DNA of 64,000 bases from an uncultured Spirochaetota bacterium (GTDB taxonomy: Bacteria; Spirochaetota; Spirochaetia; SZUA-6; Fen-1364): contig CAVTER010000004.1 in NCBI GenBank assembly GCA_963733835.1, positions 43,102 through 107,101 on the forward strand. Direction: 5' to 3'. The notes beneath the pieces are model-generated. The model had not been told where the DNA came from. It did not search any database and saw only the letters and a program-made list of their open reading frames with translations. Within the stretch, counting starts at the first letter, position 1. Every line of letters begins with the position of its first letter. The translations under genes and the position numbers were made by a program. Of this stretch, positions 24,708-35,587 are shown in pieces.

Positions 24708-25056
24708 GCCGGAAGGCGACGATCCGCCGCACCAGGGCCAGGGGGATGGGCTTCTCGTACGGGAACTGCACGGTTCCCTTCGACGTGACGAAGCGGGAGA
24801 GCTGGTCCTTGAACGCGACGACCGCTTCCACGCCCGGGTAGAGGCCCACGTGCTTCGCGTGTCCCGCGAAGTAGACGAGAATCCTGTTCTGCCAGTAGCC
24901 CGGCATGCCGTAGCTGATCTTCTCCACGGCGTCGGGCGCGGCGGCCCGGATGGCGGCCCGCAGCTGTTTCAGGATCCGCCGCACCTCGGGCGGGAAACCC
25001 GCGATGTACTGGTCGACCGTCTTCGCGGTCCTGCCGCCCATCCCGCTCTCGCTCAT
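24631..25056 (-). CDS. DUF1801 (YdhG-like) domain protein
   Basis: MSESGMGGRTAKTVDQYIAGFPPEVRRILKQLRAAI...GYWQNRILVYFAGHAKHVGLYPG. Its 3' end overlaps the cyclase gene. Confidence 0.6.
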   Translation of the reverse strand: MSESGMGGRTAKTVDQYIAGFPPEVRRILKQLRAAIRAAAPDAVEKISYGMPGYWQNRILVYFAGHAKHVGLYPGVEAVVAFKDQLSRFVTSKGTVQFPYEKPIPLALVRRIVAFRLRACVPASTPRGTRARPRAARSGSD

Positions 25057-25952
25057 AACGCCTCCACCCGACCTTCCCAGCCCGCCGCGCCCGACGCCGC
25101 CTGCTCGAGAAGGATGCCGGCCCCGGGCATTGCCCCGGTCGCCGTGAGCACCCACGCCGTGGCCAGGCACCTGGTGTCCGCGAGGATCGCCTCGGCCGCC
25201 TCGGGCGGCACCACCTTCCCGCACACGCTCTCGACCCGGGGGTCGTACGGGTCCTGGAAGTGGCCGTGCAGGGCACTGCTCACGCGCAGCGCCCGCACAG
25301 TCTCGCGCGCGGGGATGGCAGGGAGCATGCTGTTCTTCGCGTTGCAGGGGCCCGGCTCGCCGAGGAGGAACAGGGCAGGCACGCGAAAGCCGTCCCTGGC
25401 TGCGACGGCGAGGCCGCCGGTATCCACCGCGTCGAGGCCGAGGTACGCGATTGCGTGGGGATCGCGGACACAGGCGAGGTAGGCGGCAAGGCCGCCTGCC
25501 GAAAAGCCCGCGTACAGCACGGGGCCGTCGTGCAGCGCGCGTGAGAGGGCGACCATGTCCTCGGCGTTCCTGTCGTGCCTGCCGTTGAATGGAGTGGAGT
25601 TGCAGAAGCTGAGGACAGCCGTCGGCACGCCGAACGAGGCCCACCGCTCGGCCCACCCCCGCATCCACGACAGGTTGCTCGCGAAGCCATGCCCGAGGAC
25701 AACGAGGGTGTCGGTCCGCGGCTCCGCCGGCCTGTAGACTTCGAAGGCGACCGTGCACCCGAAGGCGCCCGTCCTGCTGCCCTTTTCCACGGTGACGGGG
25801 ACCGCACCCCTGCCCGCGAGGAGCACCTCCATGTCCGTGCGCGCGGGCGCCGGGTCGGGGAGGGTCACGCGGGTCGTGGATGCGCAGGAGGCGAGAAGCA
25901 GTGCTGCAACAGCAAGGGCAGGAGGCAGGGCGCGACGCGGAAGAGTTCCCAT
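25053..25952 (-). CDS. Alpha/beta-hydrolase lipoprotein (dienelactone-hydrolase/esterase-like)
   Basis: It has a signal peptide and lipobox (LLASCAS) and a GFSAGG nucleophile elbow. The 299-aa ORF is intact. Confidence 0.7.
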   Translation of the reverse strand: MGTLPRRALPPALAVAALLLASCASTTRVTLPDPAPARTDMEVLLAGRGAVPVTVEKGSRTGAFGCTVAFEVYRPAEPRTDTLVVLGHGFASNLSWMRGWAERWASFGVPTAVLSFCNSTPFNGRHDRNAEDMVALSRALHDGPVLYAGFSAGGLAAYLACVRDPHAIAYLGLDAVDTGGLAVAARDGFRVPALFLLGEPGPCNAKNSMLPAIPARETVRALRVSSALHGHFQDPYDPRVESVCGKVVPPEAAEAILADTRCLATAWVLTATGAMPGAGILLEQAASGAAGWEGRVEAL

Positions 25953-26309: not shown

Positions 26310-27446
26310 TCAGTACACGAACGCCGCGCCGGCGAGGAAGGAGAGCCCGCCGCGGCGGTTCGACGCCCAGCTGTCGGTGTCGTCGCCGAGTGCGACGCTG
26401 GCCATCGCAACAAGGGAGAGCCCGGTGTGCAGGCTCACGCTCACGCCGGGCACGATCACCGCGCTGCCGTCCACCGGCGAGACCAGCGCGCGGGCGCTCA
26501 CCGTGACGCGGGAGTCGACGGCAAGGGAGGCCTCCGGGTACAGCAGCAGGCCGTAGACAGGTGCCGGAGGAAATGGGGCATCCGATTCCTGCCACTCGCC
26601 CGCGGGGGCACAGAGGGCCTCCATGCGAAGCGACAGTGTCGCGCGCGGGCCGAGGCGCTGGAGGTGAAACACACCGGCGCTCAGGCGAAGGGTGTCCTGC
26701 AGGTCCTCCAGGCGCGGGGAGGTGGAGGGGACGGCCGTGCCTGCCGACAGGTGCCAGTCGACGAACAGGTTTCCCTGGAGCGAGACCGCGGCCTGGTGCA
26801 TCCCCGTCTCCCCCCGGTAGAGGTAGTCCGCCTCCACCTTGGTGCCCGCCAGCCTGCCGACAAGCCGCCCGCCCGCGGCGGCCGAGGTCACGTCGGGAAG
26901 AGGGGAAGAGGGGTTGGCGATGAACGCCGCCACGTCGATGCCCGGCGGCAGCGCCACCGCCTCGGCAAAGCTGAACCTGCCCAGGGGCACGTACAGCGCG
27001 GCAAGCCACGAGGAGTCATCGCGCAGCACGTCTCCTGTCAGGTCGAGGCCTGCCGCGGAGGAGCTGCCGTACAGGAGGTCAGCGGCGTTGAACGCCACGC
27101 CCTCTCCCCAGGAGAGCCGGGCCTTCCCGAGGGTGAGCCGCACGCCGGACGGCGCATCGCCGCCGGGGAATCGCACGGCGACGAGGGCCCGGGCGATCGA
27201 CGCGGAGACGCCTTCGCCCAGGAGACCGTCCAGGGCGAGCTCGGCCTTCACGTTCTCCGACTGGGAGGACAGGCTGACACGGGCGGTCCCGAGGGAGAAG
27301 AAGGCCCAGTCCGACGATGCCTCTCGCGTGAGAGTCTCGAGCACGCGGAGCCGCACGCCGAGGTCGACGTCGGCTGCCGCGGAGACGGCCGCTGCCAGGC
27401 CGGCGCAGGCCGCGAGGAGCGCACGGGCCGCGCGGCGGCCTACCAC
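26310..27446 (-). CDS. Outer-membrane beta-barrel protein (hypothetical) with signal peptide
   Basis: A 378-aa ORF with an Ala-rich signal peptide, alternating amphipathic beta-strand pattern and a C-terminal F-V-Y outer-membrane insertion motif. It is the last gene of the minus-strand operon. Confidence 0.6.
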   Translation of the reverse strand: MVGRRAARALLAACAGLAAAVSAAADVDLGVRLRVLETLTREASSDWAFFSLGTARVSLSSQSENVKAELALDGLLGEGVSASIARALVAVRFPGGDAPSGVRLTLGKARLSWGEGVAFNAADLLYGSSSAAGLDLTGDVLRDDSSWLAALYVPLGRFSFAEAVALPPGIDVAAFIANPSSPLPDVTSAAAGGRLVGRLAGTKVEADYLYRGETGMHQAAVSLQGNLFVDWHLSAGTAVPSTSPRLEDLQDTLRLSAGVFHLQRLGPRATLSLRMEALCAPAGEWQESDAPFPPAPVYGLLLYPEASLAVDSRVTVSARALVSPVDGSAVIVPGVSVSLHTGLSLVAMASVALGDDTDSWASNRRGGLSFLAGAAFVY

Positions 27447-28243
27447 GTCAACCTCTCCAGGGAGAAGAGCGCGGGGTCGAGGGCGAGGCCGATCGCGATG
27501 TCCTCGACGACGAACTCGGTCACTGAGCCCTTCTTCAGCTTGTCTTCAAGAACGACGCGCATCGGGATCGTGCGCCCGCTCACCTGGCGGAAGCCGGACA
27601 TGCGCGACTCCTTGAGCAGCCGACCCGAGAGCGAGAACTGCTGCATCCTGCGGGGGCTCCACGCCTGCGGGTCGATCCAGGCCAGTTGCCGGGGGTAGGC
27701 CACGTTCCTGCCCCTTGCTTTCATGGCGATGCGCCAGCAGTCGACCCCGTCCACCGCCTCGCTGCCCTCCAGGGTCACCTCGTACAGCTCGAGGATGTTC
27801 CGTCCCCCGGTCAGGTCTTCGTAGGACATGTCGGAGCCGAGGACAGCGTCGCGGAAGGCGGCGCCCTGCAGCCGGATCAGCTCCTCGGCCCCGGGGTAGA
27901 AGAGGTAGATCTCGTCGCGGGTGCGCAGGATCTTCTGGCCCTTCTCCTCGGCGCTGGTGAACTCGATGAGCGCATCGCCGGCTCCGCGGCTGTACGAGAG
28001 GAAGGTGGTGACCCGGGTGCCGAACCTGTCGGTCACCGTCATCCTGCCCCGCGTGCGCGAGGTGTCGTACACCTGGTTGGCCTGCATCCTGCGCACGATA
28101 TCCTCGGCGCTCCTGGCGCCCTCGGCGCTCCTGGCGCCCTCGGCGCTCCTGGCGTCCTGGGCGCAGGCGGCAGCCGCTGCCAGGGCCAGGAGCGCGGCCG
28201 CAAAGGCGGGGCGTGTCCATAGACGCATGGGAACCTCCCTCAT
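27440..28243 (-). CDS. LolA-like / outer-membrane lipoprotein-sorting-protein-family periplasmic protein, with a 3x tandem AEGARS repeat after the signal peptide
   Basis: MRLWTRPAFAAALLALAAAAACAQDARSAEGARSAEGARSAEDIV... and a LolA-like beta-barrel region (GRMTVTD...IEFTSAEEKGQKILRTRDEIYLFYPG). Its start overlaps the stop of the upstream permease (ATGA). Confidence 0.6.
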   Translation of the reverse strand: MREVPMRLWTRPAFAAALLALAAAAACAQDARSAEGARSAEGARSAEDIVRRMQANQVYDTSRTRGRMTVTDRFGTRVTTFLSYSRGAGDALIEFTSAEEKGQKILRTRDEIYLFYPGAEELIRLQGAAFRDAVLGSDMSYEDLTGGRNILELYEVTLEGSEAVDGVDCWRIAMKARGRNVAYPRQLAWIDPQAWSPRRMQQFSLSGRLLKESRMSGFRQVSGRTIPMRVVLEDKLKKGSVTEFVVEDIAIGLALDPALFSLERLTW

Positions 28244-29472
28244 ATCGCGCGCAGCGCCTCGACGGGCTGGATGCGCGCGGCCCGCCGGGCAGGCAGGAGC
28301 GCGGCCAGGCACGAGACGGCGATCGCGTAGATGAAGATCAGCACGGTGGTGAGCAGTCGGGGCCGCGCGAAGATGACCCCCGAGACCTCGATGCTCGTGC
28401 CCTGCGTGGCAGAGCTCATGTCGATGCCGAGGACCTGCATCGGGATGGAGAGGAGGAGCCCCAGGACGACCCCGGCCGCGGCCCCGAGGACCGCGAGGGC
28501 GAGGGCCTCGAGGAAGAACATCCGCACGATCTCCCTGCCCGTCATGCCCAGCGCGCCGACGGTGCCGATCTCGCGGGTGCGCTCGAAGACGACCATCATC
28601 GTGGTGTTCACCAGGACCGTGCTGGCAAGGATGAAGAAGATCAGCCCGATGACGAAGTACAGGCCCTCTGCCATCTGGAAGAAGGCCAGGAACATGCTCG
28701 CCTCGGTCCACGTCCGCGCGCGCAGGTCGGCCCAGCCCCCTTCGGCGAGGATGCGCTCGACGGACACGCGCACTGTCGGGATCTCCCTTTCGCTCCGCGC
28801 CGTGACGAGCACCTCGGTGACGCCGCCGTCGGTGCGCGCCAGGGCAACGGCCCTGTCCAGAGGGATGAAGAGGGACGACCCGTCCATCGAGGCGACGGGC
28901 ATCTCCACCAGGCCGACAACCTGGAAGGTCATGGCATTCGAGGAGCGGCGCATGGTCGTGGAAAGCAGGGTGAGGCGATCGCCCCTCTTCGCGCCAAGCG
29001 AGGCGGCGAGCCCCGTTCCCAGCACGGCCTCGTCTGCCCCCGGGGCGGGCAGCCTGCCCTCGCGCAGCAGCCGCTCCAGGTGCATGAAAGCGCGCTCCCG
29101 CTCGACATCGATCCCGACCGCCCTCGCGCCGGAGGTTTCCTGTCCCCGGAAGATCGCCACGGGGAGCGCAAGCCGCGCCGTTGCCGCTGCCACGCCCGGC
29201 TCGGCTTCCAGTCGGGCGATGAGCTCGCCGGGCCGCTCGACGCGGAGGTGCAGCGGGTTCAGCCTCTCGTGGCGTTCCCACTGCCCGTGGCGCACCTGCA
29301 CGTGTCCCGTGACAAAGTCCCTCACGTTGGCCTGCATGTCCAGGCGCATGCCGTTGATGTACCCGGCCAACGCCACCATGCTCATGGTGGCGACGGCGGT
29401 TGCCACGGCGGAGAGGATGCTCCGCCGCCTGTTCCTCCCGATGTTGCGGATTGCGATGCGCGCAAGCTTCAC
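28240..29472 (-). CDS. ABC transporter permease, FtsX/MacB/LolCE family (four TM plus large periplasmic domain)
   Basis: MKLARIAIRNIGRNRRRSILS is a typical MacB/LolC N-terminus. A periplasmic domain of about 230 aa is followed by a C-terminal FtsX three-TM bundle (ERTREIGTVGALGMT). Confidence 0.8.
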   Translation of the reverse strand: MKLARIAIRNIGRNRRRSILSAVATAVATMSMVALAGYINGMRLDMQANVRDFVTGHVQVRHGQWERHERLNPLHLRVERPGELIARLEAEPGVAAATARLALPVAIFRGQETSGARAVGIDVERERAFMHLERLLREGRLPAPGADEAVLGTGLAASLGAKRGDRLTLLSTTMRRSSNAMTFQVVGLVEMPVASMDGSSLFIPLDRAVALARTDGGVTEVLVTARSEREIPTVRVSVERILAEGGWADLRARTWTEASMFLAFFQMAEGLYFVIGLIFFILASTVLVNTTMMVVFERTREIGTVGALGMTGREIVRMFFLEALALAVLGAAAGVVLGLLLSIPMQVLGIDMSSATQGTSIEVSGVIFARPRLLTTVLIFIYAIAVSCLAALLPARRAARIQPVEALRAI

Positions 29473-29493
29473 TGCAGATTCCCTCCCGGTCGC

Positions 29494-30741
29494 TCAGCCG
29501 CGGCGCAGGCAGTCCGTGATGGACATGCGAAGCGCGCGGCGCACGGGGAACACCGCCACGGCTACGCAGGCGAGGATGCCCACGGCCAGGCCGGCCACGA
29601 ACACCTGAGGATTCCACGCGGAGCGCATGACCCCCGAGACCCTGTAGCCGATGTCCATCGTGCGCATGTCGAGCAGCCTCGAGAAGTCGATGCCCCATCG
29701 GACCATGGCCGCGTTCACGGCGGCGCCGACCGCCACGCCGGCCGCCGACCCCACAGCCCCGATGCCCGCCGCCTCCAGCAGGAAGACCCGGCGGATTTCG
29801 CGGTCGCGCATGCCCATGGCACGCATCATTCCCAGCTCCCGCACGCGCTCAGAGATGGTCATGAGCATCGTGTTCGAGACCCCGACGGCCGCGATGACGA
29901 ACACGAGGAGCAGGATGATGGTCGAGCCGCCCTTCTTGGCGGAGGAGATGCCCAGGTAGTCGGCGGACAGGTCCTTCCAGCTGGCGACGTGCAGCCCGGC
30001 AAACCCGGCGAGCGCCGGCAGCACGGTGCCCGCGGTGACCGCCTCGGCCCGGCGGTAGTCCCGGTAGCGCAGGTCGATCTCGGTCACGCTGCCGTCCATC
30101 TCCATGAGCGCGTCGGCGGTGTCCAGCGGCATGAACACGGTGCCCTTGTTGACCGCGGGGTTGGGGCAGTCGATGATGCCGACCACGTCGAGGTCGAGCA
30201 CCTGGCGGAAACCCGTGCGCGTCCTGGCCGCGATCGTGAGCAGGTCTCCCACCGACAGTCCCAGGTCCTCGGCGAGCCACCGGCCCAGCAGGGCCCCCTC
30301 TTCCCCGCCCGCGAGCGGGCGGCCCTCGGTCACCGTGGATCGAAGGGCGAACACGTCGTCGTCGCGCGCCGGGTCGATCGCGATCACCCGCACGGGCATG
30401 GACCCTTCCTCGACGACCGCTTCCCCGGCGAAGACGGTGCGCGCGGCAGCGGCGATGCCTGCCCCGCGCAGCGCGGCAAGCACGGGCTCGGGGCGCTCGA
30501 TCGCGCCGGAGAGGGGCAGGCGCTGCCGCTCCTGCCAGTACTCCCGGGTGACCACGCGCGAGGAGCCGGTCTCGTACAGGACGAGGTTGCGTTCGCTCTC
30601 GGTCTCGGCTCCCTTCAGCCACCCGTCCATGAAGATGTACACGGCGAGGCCGAAGGCGATCGCCGAGGCCGTGATGATCGTGCGCTTCCTGTAGCGCGAG
30701 AGGTTCTTCCAGGCGAGGCCCGCGAGGAACACGGCTGTCAC
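29494..30741 (-). CDS. ABC transporter permease, FtsX/MacB/LolCE family (second paralog)
   Basis: A GTG start (VTAVFLAGLAWKNLSRYRKRT) after a GAGGAGG RBS. The C-terminal FtsX domain has ERVRELGMMRAMGM. Its start overlaps the ATPase stop (GTGA). Confidence 0.8.
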   Translation of the reverse strand: MTAVFLAGLAWKNLSRYRKRTIITASAIAFGLAVYIFMDGWLKGAETESERNLVLYETGSSRVVTREYWQERQRLPLSGAIERPEPVLAALRGAGIAAAARTVFAGEAVVEEGSMPVRVIAIDPARDDDVFALRSTVTEGRPLAGGEEGALLGRWLAEDLGLSVGDLLTIAARTRTGFRQVLDLDVVGIIDCPNPAVNKGTVFMPLDTADALMEMDGSVTEIDLRYRDYRRAEAVTAGTVLPALAGFAGLHVASWKDLSADYLGISSAKKGGSTIILLLVFVIAAVGVSNTMLMTISERVRELGMMRAMGMRDREIRRVFLLEAAGIGAVGSAAGVAVGAAVNAAMVRWGIDFSRLLDMRTMDIGYRVSGVMRSAWNPQVFVAGLAVGILACVAVAVFPVRRALRMSITDCLRRG

Positions 30742-31442
30742 CTCCTCTCGTCGGAGGCCACGGCCCCGTCGTGCAGGCGCACGAGCCTGCGCGCGAAGCC
30801 CATCACCATCGGGTCGTGGGTGGAGAAGACGAATGTTGTGCGGTGCCTCGCGTTCATCGAGGCCATGAGCTCCAGGATGGCCCTGCCCGTGTCGGAGTCG
30901 AGGTTCGCCGTGGGCTCGTCGGCCAGCACGATGGACGGCTCCTTCACCAGGGCGCGCGCCACGGCCACGCGCTGCTGCTGGCCGCCGGACAGGCGCGCGG
31001 GCAGCCGGTCCTCCATGCCCCCGAGACCCACCTCGGCGAGGATGGCGGTTGTGCGCTCGCGCATGTCCCGCTCGCCCACGCCGAGAAGCGACAGGGCGAA
31101 GGAGACGTTCTCGAACGCGCTCAGCACGGGGATGAGGTTGAAGGTCTGGAAGACGAAGCCGAGGTGCCTGCGTCGGAACATCGCCAGCTCGTCGCGGCCC
31201 ATGGCGGAGACGTCCTGGCCGTCGATCTCGATGCGGCCCGTGTCGGCCCTGTCGATGCACCCGATGAGGTTCAGCAGCGTCGTCTTCCCCGAGCCGGACG
31301 GCCCGGCGATGCTCATGAACTCGCCCTTCTCGACAAGGAGCGAGACCCCCCGAAGCGCGCGCACGCCGGCCTCGCCGCCGCTGTAGGTCCTGCTCACGTC
31401 CTGCACGCTGATCAGCGCGCGCGACTTCCCGGTGTCGCTCAC
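30738..31442 (-). CDS. ABC transporter ATP-binding protein (LolD/MacB-NBD-like)
   Basis: A GTG start (VSDTGKSRALISVQDV), Walker A GPSGSGKTT, the signature LSGGQQQRVAVARAL, Walker B LADEPTANLD and the H-loop STHD. Confidence 0.85.
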   Translation of the reverse strand: MSDTGKSRALISVQDVSRTYSGGEAGVRALRGVSLLVEKGEFMSIAGPSGSGKTTLLNLIGCIDRADTGRIEIDGQDVSAMGRDELAMFRRRHLGFVFQTFNLIPVLSAFENVSFALSLLGVGERDMRERTTAILAEVGLGGMEDRLPARLSGGQQQRVAVARALVKEPSIVLADEPTANLDSDTGRAILELMASMNARHRTTFVFSTHDPMVMGFARRLVRLHDGAVASDERR

Positions 31443-32575
31443 TGCCGTGCCCCTCCATCCGCGGCCCCGCCGCCCGCCCCCTGTGTGCCCTGCTCCCCGC
31501 CTCCCGGGACTGTCGTGCGCTCCAGGGCGGCTCCCGCCATGACCGTGCCGAGGTTCATGCCGTCCAGGGCGCTGGAGGGAACGAGGATCATGGCGCCTTT
31601 CTGGCGCAGGCCCTCGTAGACCATGTTCATGGCGCGGAGGTTGAGGGCGGTGGGGTTGCCCTGGTAGCGTGCCGAGGCCTGCTCGAACTTCTCGGCGATC
31701 TCGACCTCGGCGGCCCCGAGGATCACGCGCGCCTGCTTCTCGCGTTCCGCCTGGGCCACCCGGCTCATCGCGTCCTCGAGGCCCTGCGGGAGGATGATGT
31801 CGGTGAACTCGACCGACAGGATGCTGATGCCCCACGGGTTTGTCTTGGCATCGAGGATGCCCTGGATCTCGCGGCACAGCGTGTCGCGCTGCGCCAGGAG
31901 CGTCGTGAGATCGTAGCGGCCGATCGAGTCGCGCAGGGCGGCCTGGGCCGAGAGCGTCACGGCCTCCGTGAAGTTCTCCACCTCGACAACGGACTTCTCC
32001 GCGTCCCAGATCATCCAGAAGGCGTGGGCGTCCACGTCGACGGGGACCGTGTCGCGCGTGAGCGTCTTCTCGGCAGTGAAATCGGTCGCCCGGATGCGCG
32101 TGTCGACGAAGCGCGCCACCCTGTCGGCCACGGGTACGAGGAAGAACAGGCCCGGCCCGCGAACCCTGTGGAACCGTCCCAGCCGCAGCACGACGGCCTT
32201 GTCCCACTGCGACACCATCTGCACGGACGGGGAGGCGAGCAGTCCCGCGGCGACGAGCGCCGCCAGGGGCAGGGAGCCCACCTGCGGGATGGCTGCCCAG
32301 GCCGCCCACAGCACGAGCTCGAGGGCGATCACGGTCGCCCATGTCGGCAGCGCCGCAAGCACGGCGGCCGCCGCCAGCAGCCCGGCGAATGTGTACAGCA
32401 GGTCCGGGGCCGGCAGGGCCCCCCGCAGCAGCTCGACGATCATCCCCGCTGACCCCAGGAGGAGCAGCACGATGAACGACAGCACGCCGAAGAGGAAGTC
32501 CCGCGGCACGGTCTTCTTCGCGATGCTGCGGATCCTCTGGCGTTTCTTCTCGATGATGCCCATGAGTCCTCCCAT
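31439..32575 (-). CDS. SPFH/band-7 (stomatin/prohibitin-like) membrane protein
   Basis: An N-terminal multi-TM region is followed by the band-7 core (VVLRLGRFHRVRGPGLFFLVPVADR...TRD...AEKFEQAS). Its stop overlaps the ATPase start. Confidence 0.75.
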   Translation of the reverse strand: MGGLMGIIEKKRQRIRSIAKKTVPRDFLFGVLSFIVLLLLGSAGMIVELLRGALPAPDLLYTFAGLLAAAAVLAALPTWATVIALELVLWAAWAAIPQVGSLPLAALVAAGLLASPSVQMVSQWDKAVVLRLGRFHRVRGPGLFFLVPVADRVARFVDTRIRATDFTAEKTLTRDTVPVDVDAHAFWMIWDAEKSVVEVENFTEAVTLSAQAALRDSIGRYDLTTLLAQRDTLCREIQGILDAKTNPWGISILSVEFTDIILPQGLEDAMSRVAQAEREKQARVILGAAEVEIAEKFEQASARYQGNPTALNLRAMNMVYEGLRQKGAMILVPSSALDGMNLGTVMAGAALERTTVPGGGEQGTQGAGGGAADGGARQ

Positions 32576-32579
32576 TCCC

Positions 32580-32972
32580 CTACCGCTCCAGCTCCCGCAG
32601 GGACCGGACCAGCTCGGGGATTCCCACGCCGTACGCGCCGGCCTGTGCGACGAAGCTCCGCGTCAGCTCGGCGAGCACCTGCTCGCGCTGCACCTCCGAC
32701 ATTTCCACTTTCCTGTCGCTCACGAAGGTGCCGCTGCCCTGCTGCGTCGTGACGATGCCGCGGATCTCGAGCTGGCTGTACGCCTTGGCGACGGTGTTCG
32801 GGTTGATGCTCAGCTCGACGGCGAGGCTGCGCACCGTGGGCAGCCGGTCGCCCTGCGAGAGCCTGCCGTCGGCGATGGCCATTTCCACCTGCAGGATGAT
32901 CTGCTTGTACAGCGGCACGCCGTTGCGTGCATCGAGTGAGAACTTGAACTCCCTCCGGTCCAGCGCCGCCAT
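32580..32972 (-). CDS. GntR-family transcriptional regulator, short YtrA-like subtype
   Basis: MAALDRREFKFSLDARNGVPLYKQIILQVEMAIADGRLSQGDRLPTVRSLAVELSINPNTVAKAYSQL is a GntR HTH. The effector domain is short (about 60 aa), typical of YtrA-type regulators of ABC operons. It is the first gene of the operon. Confidence 0.75.
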   Translation of the reverse strand: MAALDRREFKFSLDARNGVPLYKQIILQVEMAIADGRLSQGDRLPTVRSLAVELSINPNTVAKAYSQLEIRGIVTTQQGSGTFVSDRKVEMSEVQREQVLAELTRSFVAQAGAYGVGIPELVRSLRELER

Positions 32973-33105
32973 GCAGGCTCCCTTCGGCTGACTATTGTAC
33001 CAATGTAATAATACAACAGGAGAATAGTACACTCGCCCGTGTGTGTCAAGCGGTATGACCGGATCCGCGATCGAAGTCGATCCCCGGATGGGCTATACTG
33101 TGGGA

Positions 33106-34068
33106 ATGAATCACAGGCTCCTCCCTGCCCTCGTCCTGGTGCTGGCCGCCGCCGGCCTCGCCGCCCAGCAGCAGGTGCGCGTCTCGACCGAGCGCCAGCT
33201 TCCTGCCGCGCTGCGCTCCAATACCACGGTGACACTGGCGGCCGGAAAGTACCTGACCAGCGAGGTGAGCCAGAGCTCGAACCCCGCCGTGAGCTGGGAG
33301 GAGAGCTTCGACGGCCGACAGCTCGTTGTCACGGGGGTGAGCGGGCTCACACTGAAGGCCGCGCAGGGGGCGGCACGGGGTGCCACGCTGCTCGCCGAGC
33401 CGCGCTACTCCTACACCATCGTGTTCCGCCGGTGCAGGGACCTGCGCCTGGAGGGGCTGACCCTCGGGCACACCGAGGCGGGTGAGTGCGAGGGAGGCGT
33501 GCTGCGGTTCGAGGGCTGCGCGAACGTGCAGATCCAGGACTGCGACATGTTCGGAAGCGGCGTGGTCGGACTGGACCTTGAGAAGTGCGCGGGTGTCACG
33601 GTGCTCGGCTCGACAATCCGCGACTGCAGCGCGGGGGCACTGTGGGCGGTGGGTGTGCAGGACCTGCGTCTCGAGAACGTGCGCATCGCCGGCAACGAGG
33701 GGTGGCCCCTGGTCTGGGTGGAAGAGTCGCGAAACCTCGTCTTCGATTCCTGCCTCATCGAGGAGAGCACGGGCGAGGGCCTCTTCTGGATCGACGGGAA
33801 ATCCCAGGGGGTTTCGCTTCCCCGCACGACGATCCGGAACAACCAGACGGAGAGTCTCCTGTCCGACGACAGCGCCGAGCCCGACTTTTCGAACACGGCC
33901 TTCCTCGAGAACGACTTCGAGCAGGAGGAGGCAGACGAGCTGGACTGCGACTGCGAGGACGGCTCCGACCAGGCCTACGAGGAGGGCTACGACGAGGGCT
34001 ACCAGGAGGGCTACGAGCTGGGGTACGAGGAAGGCTACACCGACGCCCTTTCCGAGGGAGGCGACTGA
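33106..34068 (+). CDS. Secreted right-handed parallel beta-helix repeat protein with an acidic C-terminal (E/D-G-Y) repeat tail
   Basis: A signal peptide (MNHRLLPALVLVLAAAGLAAQ) is followed by beta-helix-like repeats (LRFEGCANVQIQDC, VGLDLEKCAGVTVLGSTIRDC, LRLENVRIAGN). The tail reads DELDCDCEDGSDQAYEEGYDEGYQEGYELGYEEGYTDALSEGGD. Confidence 0.6.
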   Translation: MNHRLLPALVLVLAAAGLAAQQQVRVSTERQLPAALRSNTTVTLAAGKYLTSEVSQSSNPAVSWEESFDGRQLVVTGVSGLTLKAAQGAARGATLLAEPRYSYTIVFRRCRDLRLEGLTLGHTEAGECEGGVLRFEGCANVQIQDCDMFGSGVVGLDLEKCAGVTVLGSTIRDCSAGALWAVGVQDLRLENVRIAGNEGWPLVWVEESRNLVFDSCLIEESTGEGLFWIDGKSQGVSLPRTTIRNNQTESLLSDDSAEPDFSNTAFLENDFEQEEADELDCDCEDGSDQAYEEGYDEGYQEGYELGYEEGYTDALSEGGD

Positions 34069-34072
34069 GCGC

Positions 34073-35278
34073 TCAGGCCTTCTTCAGCATCTCCTCCAGC
34101 AGGAGGTGGCAGTACAGGAGCTGGCGCGGAATGTGGAACGGGCCCTTCCACATGTTGCCCTTCAGGTCGTGCGACACGGTGCCGTCCCTGTGCAGGTAGC
34201 CGAACCACTCGCCGTACTGCCTGGTCGGGGAACCTGTCCATCGACCACGACAGTATCTTCTCGAACCAGCGCTCCCACTTCGGGTCTCCGGTGAGGTCGT
34301 AGGCGAGCAGCGCCGCATAGATGGCCTCGTTGTGCGGCCAGAACAGCTTCATGTCCCACTCGTACTGCACGGGCTGCCTGCCCTCGATGTCGACGAAGTA
34401 GAGGATGCCGCCGTACTTCGGGTCCCACCCCAGGTCGAGCGACCACTCGAGGATGGGCAGCGCCTTGTCGACAAGGGCCCTGTCGTTCCTCTGCTTCCCC
34501 TCTGCCATGATGAACCACGCCGTCTCGATCGCGTGGCCCGGGTTCACGCACCGGCCCTCGGGAGAGTCGCCCAGGTACTCGCCGTTCGGCCCCACGGTTT
34601 CCAGGAGAGCCTTCTTCTCGGGCTTCACGAAGAGGCGGAAGACCTCGTCGATCTGCGTGTCGATCATCGCGTCGTAGGGGAGGGGCGAGGCGGTGGTGTC
34701 GGCCCGGCGCATCACCTGCAGCGTGTTGATCTGGATCATCGACATGGAGTGCCCGCGCATGGGCCTCGTCTCCTGGAAGACCTTCGGCTCGAGAGACCCG
34801 GGGCCGGCCATTTCTTCGCGGCGGTCTCCTGGACGAAGCGCATGAGCGACCTGGCCTTCTCGAGGGACCGTGCGTCGCCGGCAGCCCTGCCGTACTCGGC
34901 GAAGGCCATGATCGCGAAGATCTCGGCGAAGAGGTAGCGGCGCTTGCGCAGCGGCCTGCCGTCGCGCGTGACCGAGTAGAAGACCCTGCCGTCCGTGTCG
35001 AAGCCGTGCGCCAGGATGAAGTCGATCGCGTGCTTCGACAGGGCCAGCCACTCCTCGCGCTTTTCCAGGTCGTTGTACAGGCGCGCGAGGGTCCACCCGA
35101 TCCTTCCCTCGACCCACATCGGCTTGTCGGAGCAGAGGATCTCGCCCTTCCTGTCCAGGAACGTCGTGAATCCTCCGTGCTGCCGGTCGGTGGCATGGCT
35201 GATCCAGAACGGGATGACGTTGTCCACCAGCTCGCTGCGGAACATGTCGCTCAGCTGCTTCATGCGGCGCTTTGTCAT
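34073..35278 (-). CDS. N-acylglucosamine 2-epimerase (AGE) / cellobiose-2-epimerase-family protein, 2 frameshifts
   Basis: The fragments 34736..35299 (MTKRRMKQLSDMFRSELVDNVIPFWISHATDRQHGGF), a middle frame (...AIETAWFIMAEGKQRNDRALVDKA...ILYFVDIEGRQPVQYEWDMKLFWPHNEAIYA) and 34073..34318 (FGYLHRDGTVSHDLKGNMWKGPFHIPR) join into an AGE-family (alpha/alpha)6 barrel protein. Confidence 0.7.
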
Positions 35279-35410
35279 GGGACCCTCCCGAACAGGCATC
35301 GATCGTGGAACCAGGGACGTACGATCGTCGAATCGTACCGTACCCGATGCATCCTGTCAACGAAGCACGCGGAAAATGGGCCCATTCGGAGAAATCTTCA
35401 CAAAAGCCTT

Positions 35411-35439
35411 GACGCCGGTACCGGGCCATAGTAGAATCG
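35411..35439 (+). promoter_or_regulatory. Sigma70-like promoter of the sugar ABC operon
   Basis: TTGACG-17 nt-TAGAAT, with a 10-bp palindrome CCGGTACCGG inside the spacer. It lies 150 nt upstream of the SBP start. Confidence 0.45.
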
Positions 35440-35587
35440 GCCAAAAGTCAGCGCTCACCGCGCCATGGGAAGACAGCCGAGAGCGGAAGGAGGTGGTTTC
35501 GTGTTCGTCCGCCAGCCCCCTTGAAGTTCCCGCCCCTGCACCGTTTTCCTCCATATCCACGAAAAGAACATGAGAAGGAGTGAGTCA

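Follow-up and report, generated by a model that had tools for sequence, protein, structure and literature searches.

Type VII ABC transporters (the MacB/LolCDE family) have no transmembrane substrate path; their substrates are expelled or extracted on the periplasmic side of the inner membrane. Wzi (PF14052) is an 18-stranded lectin barrel that anchors the capsule in E. coli strains with group 1 capsules. An inner-membrane exporter, a LolA-fold protein and a dedicated barrel occur together in a seven-gene plasmid cluster of Borrelia, BBJ23-29, a computational proposal dating from 2026 (PMC13078400), and in the DUF1302/DUF1329/BNR/RND clusters of Proteobacteria, for which export of envelope components has been proposed (bioRxiv 10.1101/072470). 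Because of these two computationally proposed analogues, the general architecture of the locus described here is not new. We have analyzed a seven-gene cassette located in a window of 64,000 nucleotides, which is the whole stretch of DNA under study. The original prediction knew of no described Lol or MacAB system with such a bundle. That stands for the exact set of seven genes, no description of which was found in the literature searched, but not for the architecture in general. We interpret the cassette, with somewhat better than even confidence, as a repressor-controlled, Lol-like exporter that spans the envelope and would use a shuttle, not a tunnel.

A summary of the locus is presented in Table 1. 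The ORF list of the window contains seven minus-strand ORFs at 26310-32972, and the junctions read from the sequence are those of the original prediction (GTGA twice, ATGA once and a 7-nt overlap); its gene identities and operon structure are likewise borne out by the family matches and junctions. The window has about 69% GC and long spurious ORFs are plentiful on both strands, so that mis-called ORFs, or unrelated genes adjacent by chance, had to be considered. This is hardly credible: each of the seven genes has high GC3 or a strong family match, and order, strand and start/stop overlaps are kept in dozens of species at 31-80% protein identity. The co-linear loci and conserved overlaps already refute it.

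Table 1. Features of the cassette and its upstream region (window coordinates)
Feature	Coordinates	Strand	Details
Sigma-70-like promoter	33021..33049	-	-35 TTGACA (33049-33044), 17-nt spacer, -10 TATTCT (33026-33021)
Predicted operator of YtrA-type GntR	32995..33016	-	imperfect palindrome TTGTATTA-N6-TTGGTACAA, between -10 and ribosome-binding site
GntR	32580-32972	-	130 aa; ATG start; GGGAG ribosome-binding site 6 nt upstream
SPFH	31439-32575	-	378 aa
ABC ATPase	30738-31442	-	234 aa
FtsX1	29494-30741	-	415 aa
FtsX2	28240-29472	-	410 aa
LolA-like (carrier)	27440-28243	-	267 aa
OMP (barrel)	26310-27446	-	378 aa
Junction GntR/SPFH			4-nt gap
Junction SPFH/ATPase			GTGA overlap, SPFH stop on ATPase start
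Junction ATPase/FtsX1			GTGA overlap
Junction FtsX1/FtsX2			21-nt gap
Junction FtsX2/LolA-like			ATGA overlap, FtsX2 stop on LolA-like start
Junction LolA-like/OMP			7-nt overlap (GTGGTAG), OMP start on LolA-like stop

At least 130 species genomes contain a relative of the barrel, and the best 80 loci were retrieved; all but one are titled Spirochaetota and the remaining one has no taxon. Fifty-four loci had enough upstream DNA to be assessable. The full set of seven genes, in the same order and orientation, is found in 39 of these, from different spirochaete species genomes, and the ATPase, two FtsX permeases, carrier and barrel are co-linear in 53. GntR and SPFH were detected jointly in every locus where both could be assessed (39 of 39). 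In 13 of the 54 loci both went undetected and the five-gene core stands alone; a TetR gene is usually in their place and heads at least 10 of these 13. Thus the cassette is a real operon conserved across spirochaetes rather than a chance adjacency. Co-occurrence in other genomes had been named beforehand as the point on which the proposed seven-gene assembly could fall; the assembly clearly survives, with a five-gene core to which GntR and SPFH do not belong. The 7-nt overlap of carrier and barrel is kept in 60 of 78 loci, and by this conserved overlap the two genes are predicted to be translationally coupled. At a single locus (L050) no ABC genes adjoin those of carrier and barrel, an observation that counts against an exporter. 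No flanking gene family is common to more than 15 loci, and the beta-helix protein and other neighbours in the window gave no tblastn match near any of 84 related loci; the suggestion that the beta-helix protein is the cargo is therefore not supported. Since no conserved cargo or biosynthetic gene was found beside the cassette in related loci, the cargo is unconstrained by gene neighbourhood, which likewise counts against an exporter.

The ATPase (PF00005, 118.7 bits) has intact Walker A (GPSGSGKTT), signature (LSGGQQQR) and Walker B (IVLADEP, of the ILADEP type) motifs in its translation. It appears to belong to the LolD/DevA/MacB-NBD/FtsE group, scoring 209 bits with the NCBIfam model DevA (cut-off 295.8) and 206.5 bits with LolD (cut-off 307.75). 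Both permeases match PF02687 and PF12704 and have the MacB/LolCE topology (TM1, a MacB_PCD periplasmic domain of ~230 aa, TM2-4), in agreement with the predicted inner-membrane MacB/LolCDE-like transporter, of type VII, with two different permeases. Against a cut-off of 362 bits for lolCE (TIGR02212), FtsX1 scores 93.9 and FtsX2 137.9. Among PDB sequences FtsX1 ranks LolF, LolE (49.3 bits), YtrF (43.5), LolC (43.3) and MacB (34.7), which would place it slightly nearer LolE than LolC, and FtsX2 ranks LolF (72.9), LolC (65.2), YtrF (50.5), LolE (47.7) and MacB (34.8), which suggests that it is nearer LolC; it is this LolC-like permease that is encoded beside the carrier. No membrane-fusion adaptor or TolC-type gene was found in the cassette by family search, and a shuttle is therefore the only encoded route.

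These affinities raise the question of whether the cassette is the housekeeping Lol pathway, with LolCDE, a divergent LolA and the barrel replacing LolB as acceptor for all outer-membrane lipoproteins. In its favour, the permeases have LolF, LolC and LolE as their closest solved relatives and, like LolC/LolE, come as an unlike pair; the fold of the carrier is that of the LolA superfamily, and LolB is not recognised in spirochaetes (PMC11326224, PMC13078400). We nevertheless consider this improbable. The equivalog thresholds of lolCE and LolD are widely missed by the scores given above, the carrier matches PF17131 and not Pfam LolA, and the functional LolA of Borrelia is a separate chromosomal homologue, BB0346 (PMC11326224). 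Moreover, the cassette has dedicated repressors, it is present in two variant copies in the single genome of Ca. Marispirochaeta associata (L019, L034), and among the best 80 loci the Treponemataceae are represented by a single MAG, Borrelia and Leptospira by no record at all. The original view that this is not a canonical lolCDE locus is thus upheld, and since permeases and ATPase fall well below the curated LolCE/LolD thresholds, the Lol-like chemistry of the exporter that we propose is an analogy.

The carrier matches PF17131 (LolA_like, alias TP_0789-like; 142.5 bits, E 1.5e-41), without a match to the Pfam LolA model, and among solved structures it comes closest to that of NE2245, a member of the LolA superfamily (3BUU, E 8e-18). 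Most orthologues have a small-residue (AxA-like) site at the end of the signal peptide, and a conserved AEEII-type motif comes next; Cys occurs within the signal peptide of a few, but at a conserved lipobox position in none, so that the family is not lipid-anchored. As anticipated, the protein is thus a LolA-fold periplasmic protein, soluble and secreted. PF17131 proteins also adjoin MMPL/RND exporters in Haliovirga and Pseudoalteromonas and an ABC gene with two FtsX genes in Persicobacter; one lies beside an MMPL/RND exporter in P. gingivalis and Prevotella (PMC10434189), and T. pallidum TP0790, whose number adjoins that of the PF17131 namesake TP0789, has been modelled as an AcrB-type RND pump (PMC8407342). 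The presence of this family beside other inner-membrane exporters argues that it serves generally as the periplasmic acceptor of an exporter.

AlphaFold, supplied with an 85-sequence alignment, models the last gene product as an 18-stranded barrel (pLDDT 93.9), and we confidently predict a secreted outer-membrane beta-barrel of the dedicated kind originally proposed. The family is uncurated and apparently restricted to spirochaetes: it has no Pfam or NCBIfam model, and its profile found no PDB sequence. Wzi-like signals are weak. Co-linear PF14052 matches over the first strands and a conserved WGEG-FNAGD loop occur in 32 of 85 family members, all below the gathering score (≤18.4 bits against 30.1) and none for the window protein; very weak DUF1302 matches occur in 2 of 85. 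The barrel starts directly after the signal peptide, so that a large N-terminal domain could not fit ahead of it. Its best structural matches include the substrate-specific uptake channels OccD/OprD, ChiP, ScrY and LamB, which could point to traffic in the retrograde direction (Mla-like or FadL-like logic), with the barrel admitting a hydrophobic nutrient or mislocalised lipid, the carrier ferrying it inward and the ABC transporter handling it at the inner membrane. LolA-fold proteins and their dedicated barrels (DUF1329/DUF1302) show cofitness with RND and BNR genes in Pseudomonas and Shewanella, and the phenotypes are on fatty esters, Tween 20 for example (bioRxiv 10.1101/2020.07.04.188060, 10.1101/072470). 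Uptake is nonetheless very unlikely here, as the expulsion or extraction chemistry of type VII transporters runs against it and the cassette has no linked gene for catabolism, for a substrate-binding protein or for a permease of the importer type.

The first gene of the operon appears to encode a short YtrA-type GntR transcription factor, as had been predicted: it matches PF00392 (70.7 bits), and its nearest solved structures are the short GntR proteins Lmo0741, Lmo2241 and Lin1836 (121-134 aa), which align nearly end to end. Its best NCBIfam matches, the Rv1152 family and PmtR, are both below cut-off. The promoter upstream matches the consensus at 10 of 12 positions (3 sites in the region against 0.2 expected), and an operator-like half-site, TGTACTA (33031-33025), overlaps its -10; TTGACA followed by a TGTAYTA-containing sequence recurs at the same place 5' of GntR in related loci. 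In 34 of 40 loci the 250 nt that precede the GntR start contain TGTAYTA-N3-10-TA.TACA or something close to it, and TTGTACTAAT-N5-GTACAA-type variants are visible in five of the other six, four of them Sphaerochaeta; neither the fetched loci (1.14 Mb, both strands searched) nor the remainder of the window had any further occurrence of the pattern. A promoter and a predicted palindromic operator upstream of GntR are thus conserved, and GntR may repress the operon by binding the palindrome TTGTAYTA-N5/6-TwrkTACAA, over and just 3' of the promoter. The second gene product is a predicted stomatin-type SPFH/Band-7 membrane protein (PF01145, 114.3 bits); PH stomatin (E 2.8e-34) and human stomatin are its nearest solved structures, ahead of QmcA or HflK/C, and hydropathy indicates an N-terminal hydrophobic region of ~90 aa with 3-4 TM segments. 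We infer that this protein, inherited with GntR, may scaffold the transporter in the membrane or supply the sensing of membrane state that GntR, having no effector domain, lacks.

Local TetR and GntR repressors are more common with inducible efflux and stress pumps than with envelope-biogenesis machines, which counts against a Lol-like exporter. With a YtrA-GntR or a TetR repressor heading its two variants, the cassette might instead serve inducible detoxification, clearing the periplasm or outer leaflet of exogenous toxins of a hydrophobic kind (fatty acids and detergent-like lipids, antimicrobial peptides or lipophilic antibiotics) and passing them out through the barrel, with de-repression on exposure. 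PmtR, among the best GntR matches, regulates a peptide-export ABC transporter; both permeases have YtrF, a permease of the YtrA-regulated operon of B. subtilis, among their closest relatives of solved structure; exporters of drugs and of peptides are found in the MacB family (PMC5985334); and two copies in one genome, as in Ca. Marispirochaeta associata, are common for efflux pumps. We regard efflux as rather unlikely all the same. The MacA adaptor and TolC duct of known MacB-type pumps are not encoded in the cassette, bulk efflux by way of a stoichiometric soluble carrier is inefficient, and the strict translational coupling of carrier and barrel, together with strongly conserved charged residues in the barrel, suggests a specific cargo.

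In the Lol-like exporter that we favour, two copies of the ATPase would power the FtsX heterodimer, a mechanotransmission transporter, which would pull a molecule that is strongly hydrophobic or anchored by a lipid out of the inner membrane's periplasmic leaflet and load it into the soluble carrier. The carrier would then cross the periplasm and deliver the molecule to the barrel, for insertion into the outer membrane or release at the surface. The most likely cargo would be an endogenous lipid-anchored surface component, either a lipoprotein or a glycolipid.

The cassette is best read as neither canonical LolCDE nor MacAB-TolC. With LolCDE-LolA-LolB of E. coli and other diderms (including LolF variants) it shares an ATPase and two different FtsX-type permeases with large periplasmic domains, as well as a soluble LolA-superfamily carrier and the logic of a shuttle without a trans-periplasmic duct. 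However, its outer-membrane end is an integral barrel where LolB is a lipoprotein, its carrier and barrel are in the operon and translationally coupled, and a repressor of its own is included, joined in most loci by a stomatin gene. MacAB-TolC has the same FtsX plus MacB_PCD permease architecture and LolD/MacB-type ATPase; the cassette differs in that its ATPase is encoded as a polypeptide by itself, its permeases form a heterodimer, and a soluble carrier and monomer-type barrel take the place of the duct formed with a MacA-type adaptor and TolC-type outer-membrane factor. The TetR-MMPL(RND)-PF17131 modules (P. gingivalis PG1175-81, Prevotella, Haliovirga, Pseudoalteromonas) also place PF17131 beside an inner-membrane exporter, often with a local repressor, which is TetR as in the five-gene spirochaete variant, but the pump is a proton-driven MMPL/RND protein, no recognised dedicated barrel has been described, and those of oral Bacteroidota are strongly induced on iron depletion. 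The DUF1302 (barrel)/DUF1329 (LolA/LolB-like) clusters combine barrel, LolA-fold protein and exporter without significant sequence relationship to the cassette; they use an RND pump, they alone have the BNR propeller, and they have mutant phenotypes where the spirochaete cassette has none yet. Wzi is encoded in a wza-wzb-wzc capsule locus, whereas the cassette barrel lies in an ABC/LolA-like operon. B. subtilis ytrABCDEF is similarly headed by a short YtrA-type GntR and has an FtsX-type permease, but is a monoderm system without periplasmic carrier, barrel or SPFH gene. Borrelia BBJ23-29 likewise combines a dedicated outer-membrane barrel and a LolA-like protein with an ABC ATPase and a type VII permease resembling MacB. 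The window carrier had no tblastn match at E≤1e-3 in Borreliella plasmids, and FtsX2 has distant matches there in 17 records. Unlike the cassette, BBJ23-29 is plasmid-borne and has a single homodimeric permease, with TPR proteins in place of GntR and SPFH; its barrel is an Omp85/TamA-like domain, while that of the cassette is 18-stranded and of Wzi/porin size.

We have re-derived the gene models of the operon, using family matches, the start codons and the sequence that precedes them. The GC content of the window is about 69%, so long spurious ORFs are abundant. As regards gene layout, every particular of the original prediction, which had placed seven minus-strand genes at 26310-32972 with overlapping stops and starts, was correct. 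In gene order, the junctions are a 4-nt gap, GTGA, a second GTGA, a 21-nt gap, ATGA and a 7-nt overlap.

Gene models of the seven-gene cassette and of two flanking genes (positions in the window)
Gene	Position	Strand	Length	Remarks
GntR	32580-32972	-	130 aa	
SPFH	31439-32575	-	378 aa	
ABC ATPase	30738-31442	-	234 aa	
FtsX1	29494-30741	-	415 aa	
FtsX2	28240-29472	-	410 aa	
LolA-like carrier	27440-28243	-	267 aa	
Barrel (last gene)	26310-27446	-	378 aa	
Beta-helix protein	33043-34068	+ (divergent)		secreted, PF13229 right-handed beta-helix
Lipobox protein	25053-25952	-	299 aa	LLASC lipobox-like signal peptide, just downstream of operon

At three distant homologues (34-41% identity) the seven genes recur in unchanged order, with the 7-nt overlap and with different flanks. 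Relatives of the barrel were found in at least 130 genomes when one genome per species was scanned. The best 80 loci are all titled Spirochaetota except one 'uncultured bacterium'; they come from Spirochaetaceae, Marispirochaeta, Sphaerochaeta, Thalassospirochaeta and one Treponemataceae MAG. Sphaerochaeta and Marispirochaeta are among the cultured genera that have the cassette. The seven window proteins were compared with all loci by tblastn, and a locus was considered assessable if its DNA upstream of the barrel gene amounted to 6.3 kb or more (n=54). All seven genes are co-linear in 39 of these 54 loci, and 13 contain only the ATPase, two FtsX, carrier and barrel genes, so the functional core is five genes. 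One locus (L073) has a 100-N gap at the expected GntR position, and another, on a complete spirochaete chromosome (L050 8210-10233, OZ253446.1), has only carrier and barrel genes, beside histidine-biosynthesis genes. ABC genes were not detected within the fetched L050 locus, and this pair may function together with a transporter whose genes lie elsewhere. Inside the related cassettes the same searches found only the seven gene types of the window. Ca. Marispirochaeta associata JC231 harbours both variants, with seven genes at L019 and five at L034, and the two copies may differ in cargo or regulation. Recurrence of the gene set in other genomes, on which the original prediction depended, is borne out by the 39 complete loci, and chance adjacency of the genes is excluded.

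The beta-helix protein had been proposed as a possible cargo. This proposal was rejected, since neither this protein nor the lipobox or DUF1801 proteins beside the operon gave a tblastn match near any of the 84 related loci; the latter two were rejected as conserved partner or cargo on the same grounds. All-against-all clustering of flanking ORFs yielded no family common to more than 15 loci, and no cargo candidate emerged. The commonest family was DUF5312, with TetR next, and after these came ogt, ferredoxin, aminotransferase and Crp-type genes. The cassette is self-contained, with no cargo gene linked to it. As to the flanking genes themselves, the lipobox protein has no Pfam match and its gene has its own promoter-like site at 26274-26246, and the acidic, repetitive C-terminal tail of the beta-helix protein, EEGYDEGYQEGYELGYEEGY, matches Yae1_N. 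At 34035-35299 (minus strand), the parts of an N-acylglucosamine 2-epimerase gene lie in different reading frames: ORF 34736-35299 covers PF07221 positions 1-116, another frame of ORF 34035-35444 covers positions 199-315, and the C-terminus seems to be carried by a third frame, 34073-34318. The gene is either a pseudogene or the product of assembly frameshift errors.

The ATPase matches Pfam ABC_tran (118.7 bits), and its translated sequence shows the Walker A, signature and Walker B motifs. The two permeases are distinct subunits, each with PF02687 (FtsX) and PF12704 (MacB_PCD) domains and with four TM segments, a large periplasmic domain lying between TM1 and TM2. Hydropathy places TM1 near residue 30 and the other three segments after residue 270, which gives both proteins a predicted classical type VII topology. 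The FtsX domain, MacB-like periplasmic core and ATPase motifs of the type VII (MacB/FtsX) ABC superfamily are therefore all present. Transporters of this type, such as MacB and LolCDE, act by mechanotransmission on periplasmic-side substrates (PMC5985334, PMC8277102). The nearest solved structures of the permeases are LolF, LolC and LolE, then YtrF, then MacB; FtsX2, whose gene adjoins that of the carrier, is closer to LolC (65 bits vs 48 for LolE), and FtsX1 is slightly nearer LolE than LolC. On the NCBIfam LolC/E model (TIGR02212, cut-off 362.45 bits) FtsX1 and FtsX2 score 93.9 and 137.9 bits, and the ATPase scores 206.5 bits on the LolD model (TIGR02211, cut-off 307.75), about the same as on the DevA, DarD, MacB and FtsE models. 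No cassette product reaches any NCBIfam equivalog threshold. One or two extra FtsX-type permease genes lie beside or inside the cassette in four loci (L077 5394-6623, L079 10101-12641, L081 10099-11355 and L083 2215-3459); in L077 the additional gene sits between carrier and barrel.

The carrier belongs to the LolA superfamily, as predicted, judging from its match to PF17131 LolA_like (142.5 bits, E 1.5e-41, profile positions 4-183 of 184; gathering threshold 30 bits) and from its nearest solved structure, 3BUU (NE2245, E 8e-18). This and the other near structures (9TP6, 4Z48, 3BK5) are uncharacterised LolA-superfamily proteins. PF17131 is its only match at E<=0.01; the Pfam LolA model gives none. 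With this result and the missed TIGR02212 and TIGR02211 cut-offs, the view that the operon is not the canonical lolCDE locus stands. That the cassette could still be the housekeeping Lol pathway of these spirochaetes is quite improbable: equivalog thresholds are missed and the carrier is PF17131-only, the cassette has dedicated repressors, is duplicated in one genome and occupies few lineages among the loci retrieved, and the functional LolA of Borrelia is a separate LolA homologue (PMC11326224).

In most carrier orthologues the signal peptide ends at a small-residue (AxA-like) site, and a conserved AEEII-type motif comes after it. Cys occurs within the signal peptide of a few orthologues, in none of them at a conserved lipobox position; the Cys of the window carrier is therefore incidental and the protein soluble. 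Its lipobox-like AAAC is not kept in orthologues, and a lipoprotein assignment was rejected. An 18-bp tandem repeat in the carrier gene (28102-28164; 3.5 copies, 95% matches) encodes ARSAEG-ARSAEG-ARSAED directly after the signal peptide. Since orthologues have one copy of the motif ((S/T)AEE(I/V)), the triplication at the mature N-terminus is lineage-specific.

PF17131 genes are found next to other exporters as well. They adjoin MMPL/RND exporters in Haliovirga and Pseudoalteromonas, with or without TetR nearby, and iron depletion raises the expression of similar operons 13- to several-hundred-fold in P. gingivalis and Prevotella (PMC10434189). T. pallidum TP0790, modelled as an AcrB-type RND pump, is numbered next to TP0789, the PF17131 namesake (PMC8407342). 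TP0786-TP0788 do not form an ABC/FtsX set beside TP0789; the published model of TP0786 is LptB, and the RND-type pump is TP0790. A replicon of Persicobacter psychrovividus (Bacteroidota; NZ_AP025293.1, L085 3060-8681) encodes TetR, a secreted 378-aa protein, an ABC ATPase, two FtsX proteins and a PF17131 carrier 30% identical to that of the window. The secreted protein has no Pfam family and may be a barrel; we claim no homology to the spirochaete barrel family (hhalign probability 0.12, not significant). These neighbouring exporters of several kinds support a generic acceptor role for PF17131 proteins. With the cassette, the family gains a testable candidate role, that of an acceptor in the periplasm for inner-membrane exporters of two different energy classes.

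The protein encoded by the last gene has no Pfam match. A single-sequence AlphaFold model was unusable (pLDDT 33.3), and the prediction was repeated with an 85-sequence alignment. The resulting model is an 18-stranded barrel, as in Wzi, in agreement with the outer-membrane barrel originally proposed. Conservation is strongest in the long segment that joins strands 5 and 6 (G107, W113, G114, G116 and N120, within GKxRLSWGEGxxFNAGD). In the model this region would be extracellular loop 3, which, by analogy with porins, may fold into the lumen. The Wzi family PF14052 (gathering threshold 30.1 bits) does not match the window barrel and matches 32 of 85 relatives weakly (best 18.4 bits, E 0.0012, below that threshold); a profile of the barrel family finds no match among PDB sequences even at E 10. 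The family is uncurated and comprises about 400 clusters at 50% identity. A lipobox-like LAAC in the signal peptide is not kept in orthologues, and the barrel was rejected as a lipoprotein. The structural neighbours of the barrel include uptake channels and, together with the DUF1302/DUF1329 phenotypes on fatty esters (bioRxiv 10.1101/2020.07.04.188060, 10.1101/072470), could point to retrograde transport or uptake; such a role fits poorly with the mechanics of type VII ABC transporters, and we regard it as very unlikely.

The junction between carrier and barrel reads [A/G/T]TGGT plus the rest of the stop codon in 60 of 78 loci, and in six further loci the start is the TTG within TTTTGA, so that the genes overlap by 4 nt. 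The barrel nearly always has Val at residue 2, since GT and the second base of the carrier stop codon make up this codon, and the same 7-nt overlap (27440-27446 in the window; related loci L001-L084) explains why the carrier usually ends in Trp. Since the overlap fixes them, both residues are by-products of overlapping codons and not of protein function. The persistent translational coupling suggests that carrier and barrel need to be synthesized together.

The first gene of the operon encodes a YtrA-type GntR protein, as had been proposed. It matches Pfam GntR (70.7 bits; PF00392 over residues 21-84), aligns end to end with short GntR structures of 121-134 aa, and combines a winged helix with a very short C-terminal region and no effector-binding domain. 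A sigma-70-like promoter (TTGACA, 17 nt, TATTCT; 33049-33021, minus strand) lies about 50 nt 5' of the ATG, and it fixes the start codon at 32972. Aligned GntR upstream regions of related loci share TTGACA, TGTAYTA over the -10 element, and then a palindrome, TTGTAYTA-N5/6-TwrkTACAA, which in the window is TTGTATTATTACATTGGTACAA at 33016-32995. Of 40 loci, 34 carry a relaxed form of this pattern no more than 250 nt upstream of GntR, and both strands of the 1.14 Mb of fetched loci contain no other copy. Five of the six loci lacking it show TTGTACTAAT-N5-GTACAA-type variants; four of these are Sphaerochaeta. The palindrome has the GT...AC core typical of GntR-family operators and is best read as a predicted autoregulatory operator of GntR. 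Operator and promoter are additions to the original prediction.

The SPFH protein (Pfam Band_7, 114.3 bits) is a stomatin, with E 2.8e-34 to PH stomatin vs 9e-25 to QmcA and 8e-8 to HflK. Its hydrophobic N-terminal region of about 90 residues (three to four segments by hydropathy, within residues 1-118) is unusually long, as stomatins usually have a single anchor or hairpin. An NfeD/STOPP-type partner is common in prokaryotic stomatin operons. No NfeD-family match was found among the seven cassette products; here GntR precedes the SPFH gene and the ABC ATPase follows it. GntR and SPFH are found together in 39 loci and are undetected together in 13, and they thus form a regulatory or accessory module that is interchangeable with TetR. 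A TetR gene lies directly upstream of the ATPase gene in 10 of the 13 five-gene loci and in two shorter loci, overlapping the ATPase gene in L011; the five-gene locus of JC231 (L034) instead has a divergently oriented sigma-54 activator upstream. SPFH proteins assemble into membrane cages, and the many chains per entry in the solved structures of stomatin, QmcA and HflK/C agree with this; the protein could thus be a scaffold or cage for the transporter. Alternatively, it could be the sensing partner of GntR, a repressor that has no effector domain. The exchange of GntR plus SPFH for TetR, which has its own ligand-binding domain, favours the sensing reading over the scaffold, and this clean swap suggests that a stomatin may act as sensing partner of a YtrA-type repressor.

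The local repressors, the affinities to YtrA, PmtR and YtrF, and the paralogy of the cassette would also fit inducible efflux of exogenous hydrophobic toxins. However, no adaptor or TolC family matches any of the seven products in Pfam, and the carrier is stoichiometric; we consider efflux unlikely. Because no MacA-type adaptor and no TolC are encoded, extraction, carriage and delivery make up the only complete route that can be assembled from these parts. The type VII ABC transporter with its Lol-like permeases would extract the substrate at the inner membrane, the soluble LolA-fold carrier would take it through the periplasm, and delivery would be to the outer-membrane barrel. This is the most likely mechanism and somewhat more probable than all others together; its hand-offs, direction and cargo are what we infer. 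A wider reading, which we offer tentatively and hold to be doubtful as a whole, is that free-living and host-associated spirochaetes, in which no LolB is recognised, own a second, dedicated inner-membrane-to-surface route for a lipid-anchored molecule (a surface lipoprotein or glycolipid). The Lol-like extractor would load the PF17131 carrier, which would dock on the Wzi-like 18-stranded barrel, of a family not recognised before; the barrel would act as outer-membrane insertase or flippase, and a stomatin cage would organise or gate the extractor and relay the membrane state to the YtrA repressor. The cassette bears on how LolB-less diderms, notably spirochaetes, deliver lipoproteins and other lipid-anchored molecules to and across the outer membrane. 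It offers a small model of the entire route, isolated genetically, in which energiser, carrier, outer-membrane terminus, regulator and operator share a single operon of 6.7 kb.

Among known systems, the cassette would work like LolCDE, which releases triacylated lipoproteins to LolA, yet it fails the LolCDE membership scores and the strict LolA family test. It shares the type VII superfamily with MacAB-TolC, but lacks a MacA/HlyD-type adaptor and a TolC-type factor; even as a shuttle-type efflux pump it would represent a new architecture of MacB-family export, one that dispenses with both. The barrel has the 18 strands of Wzi, but it gives no PF14052 match, and those of its relatives are below the gathering threshold. 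The nearest described system is the Borrelia BBJ23-29 cluster, a computational proposal of 2026 (PMC13078400), which shares the logic of ABC transporter, LolA-like protein and barrel. That cluster has an Omp85-type barrel, one permease and TPR proteins, whereas the window cassette has neither an Omp85-type barrel nor TPR proteins. The window permease has distant matches on Borreliella plasmids, and the window carrier has no detectable match there. The original prediction that no described Lol or MacAB system bundles these genes holds for the cassette as such, of which full-text searches found no description; its general logic, by contrast, has precedents. What is new is the apparently spirochaete-restricted barrel family, the fixed five-gene core, the module of stomatin and YtrA-type repressor, and a defined, predicted operator.
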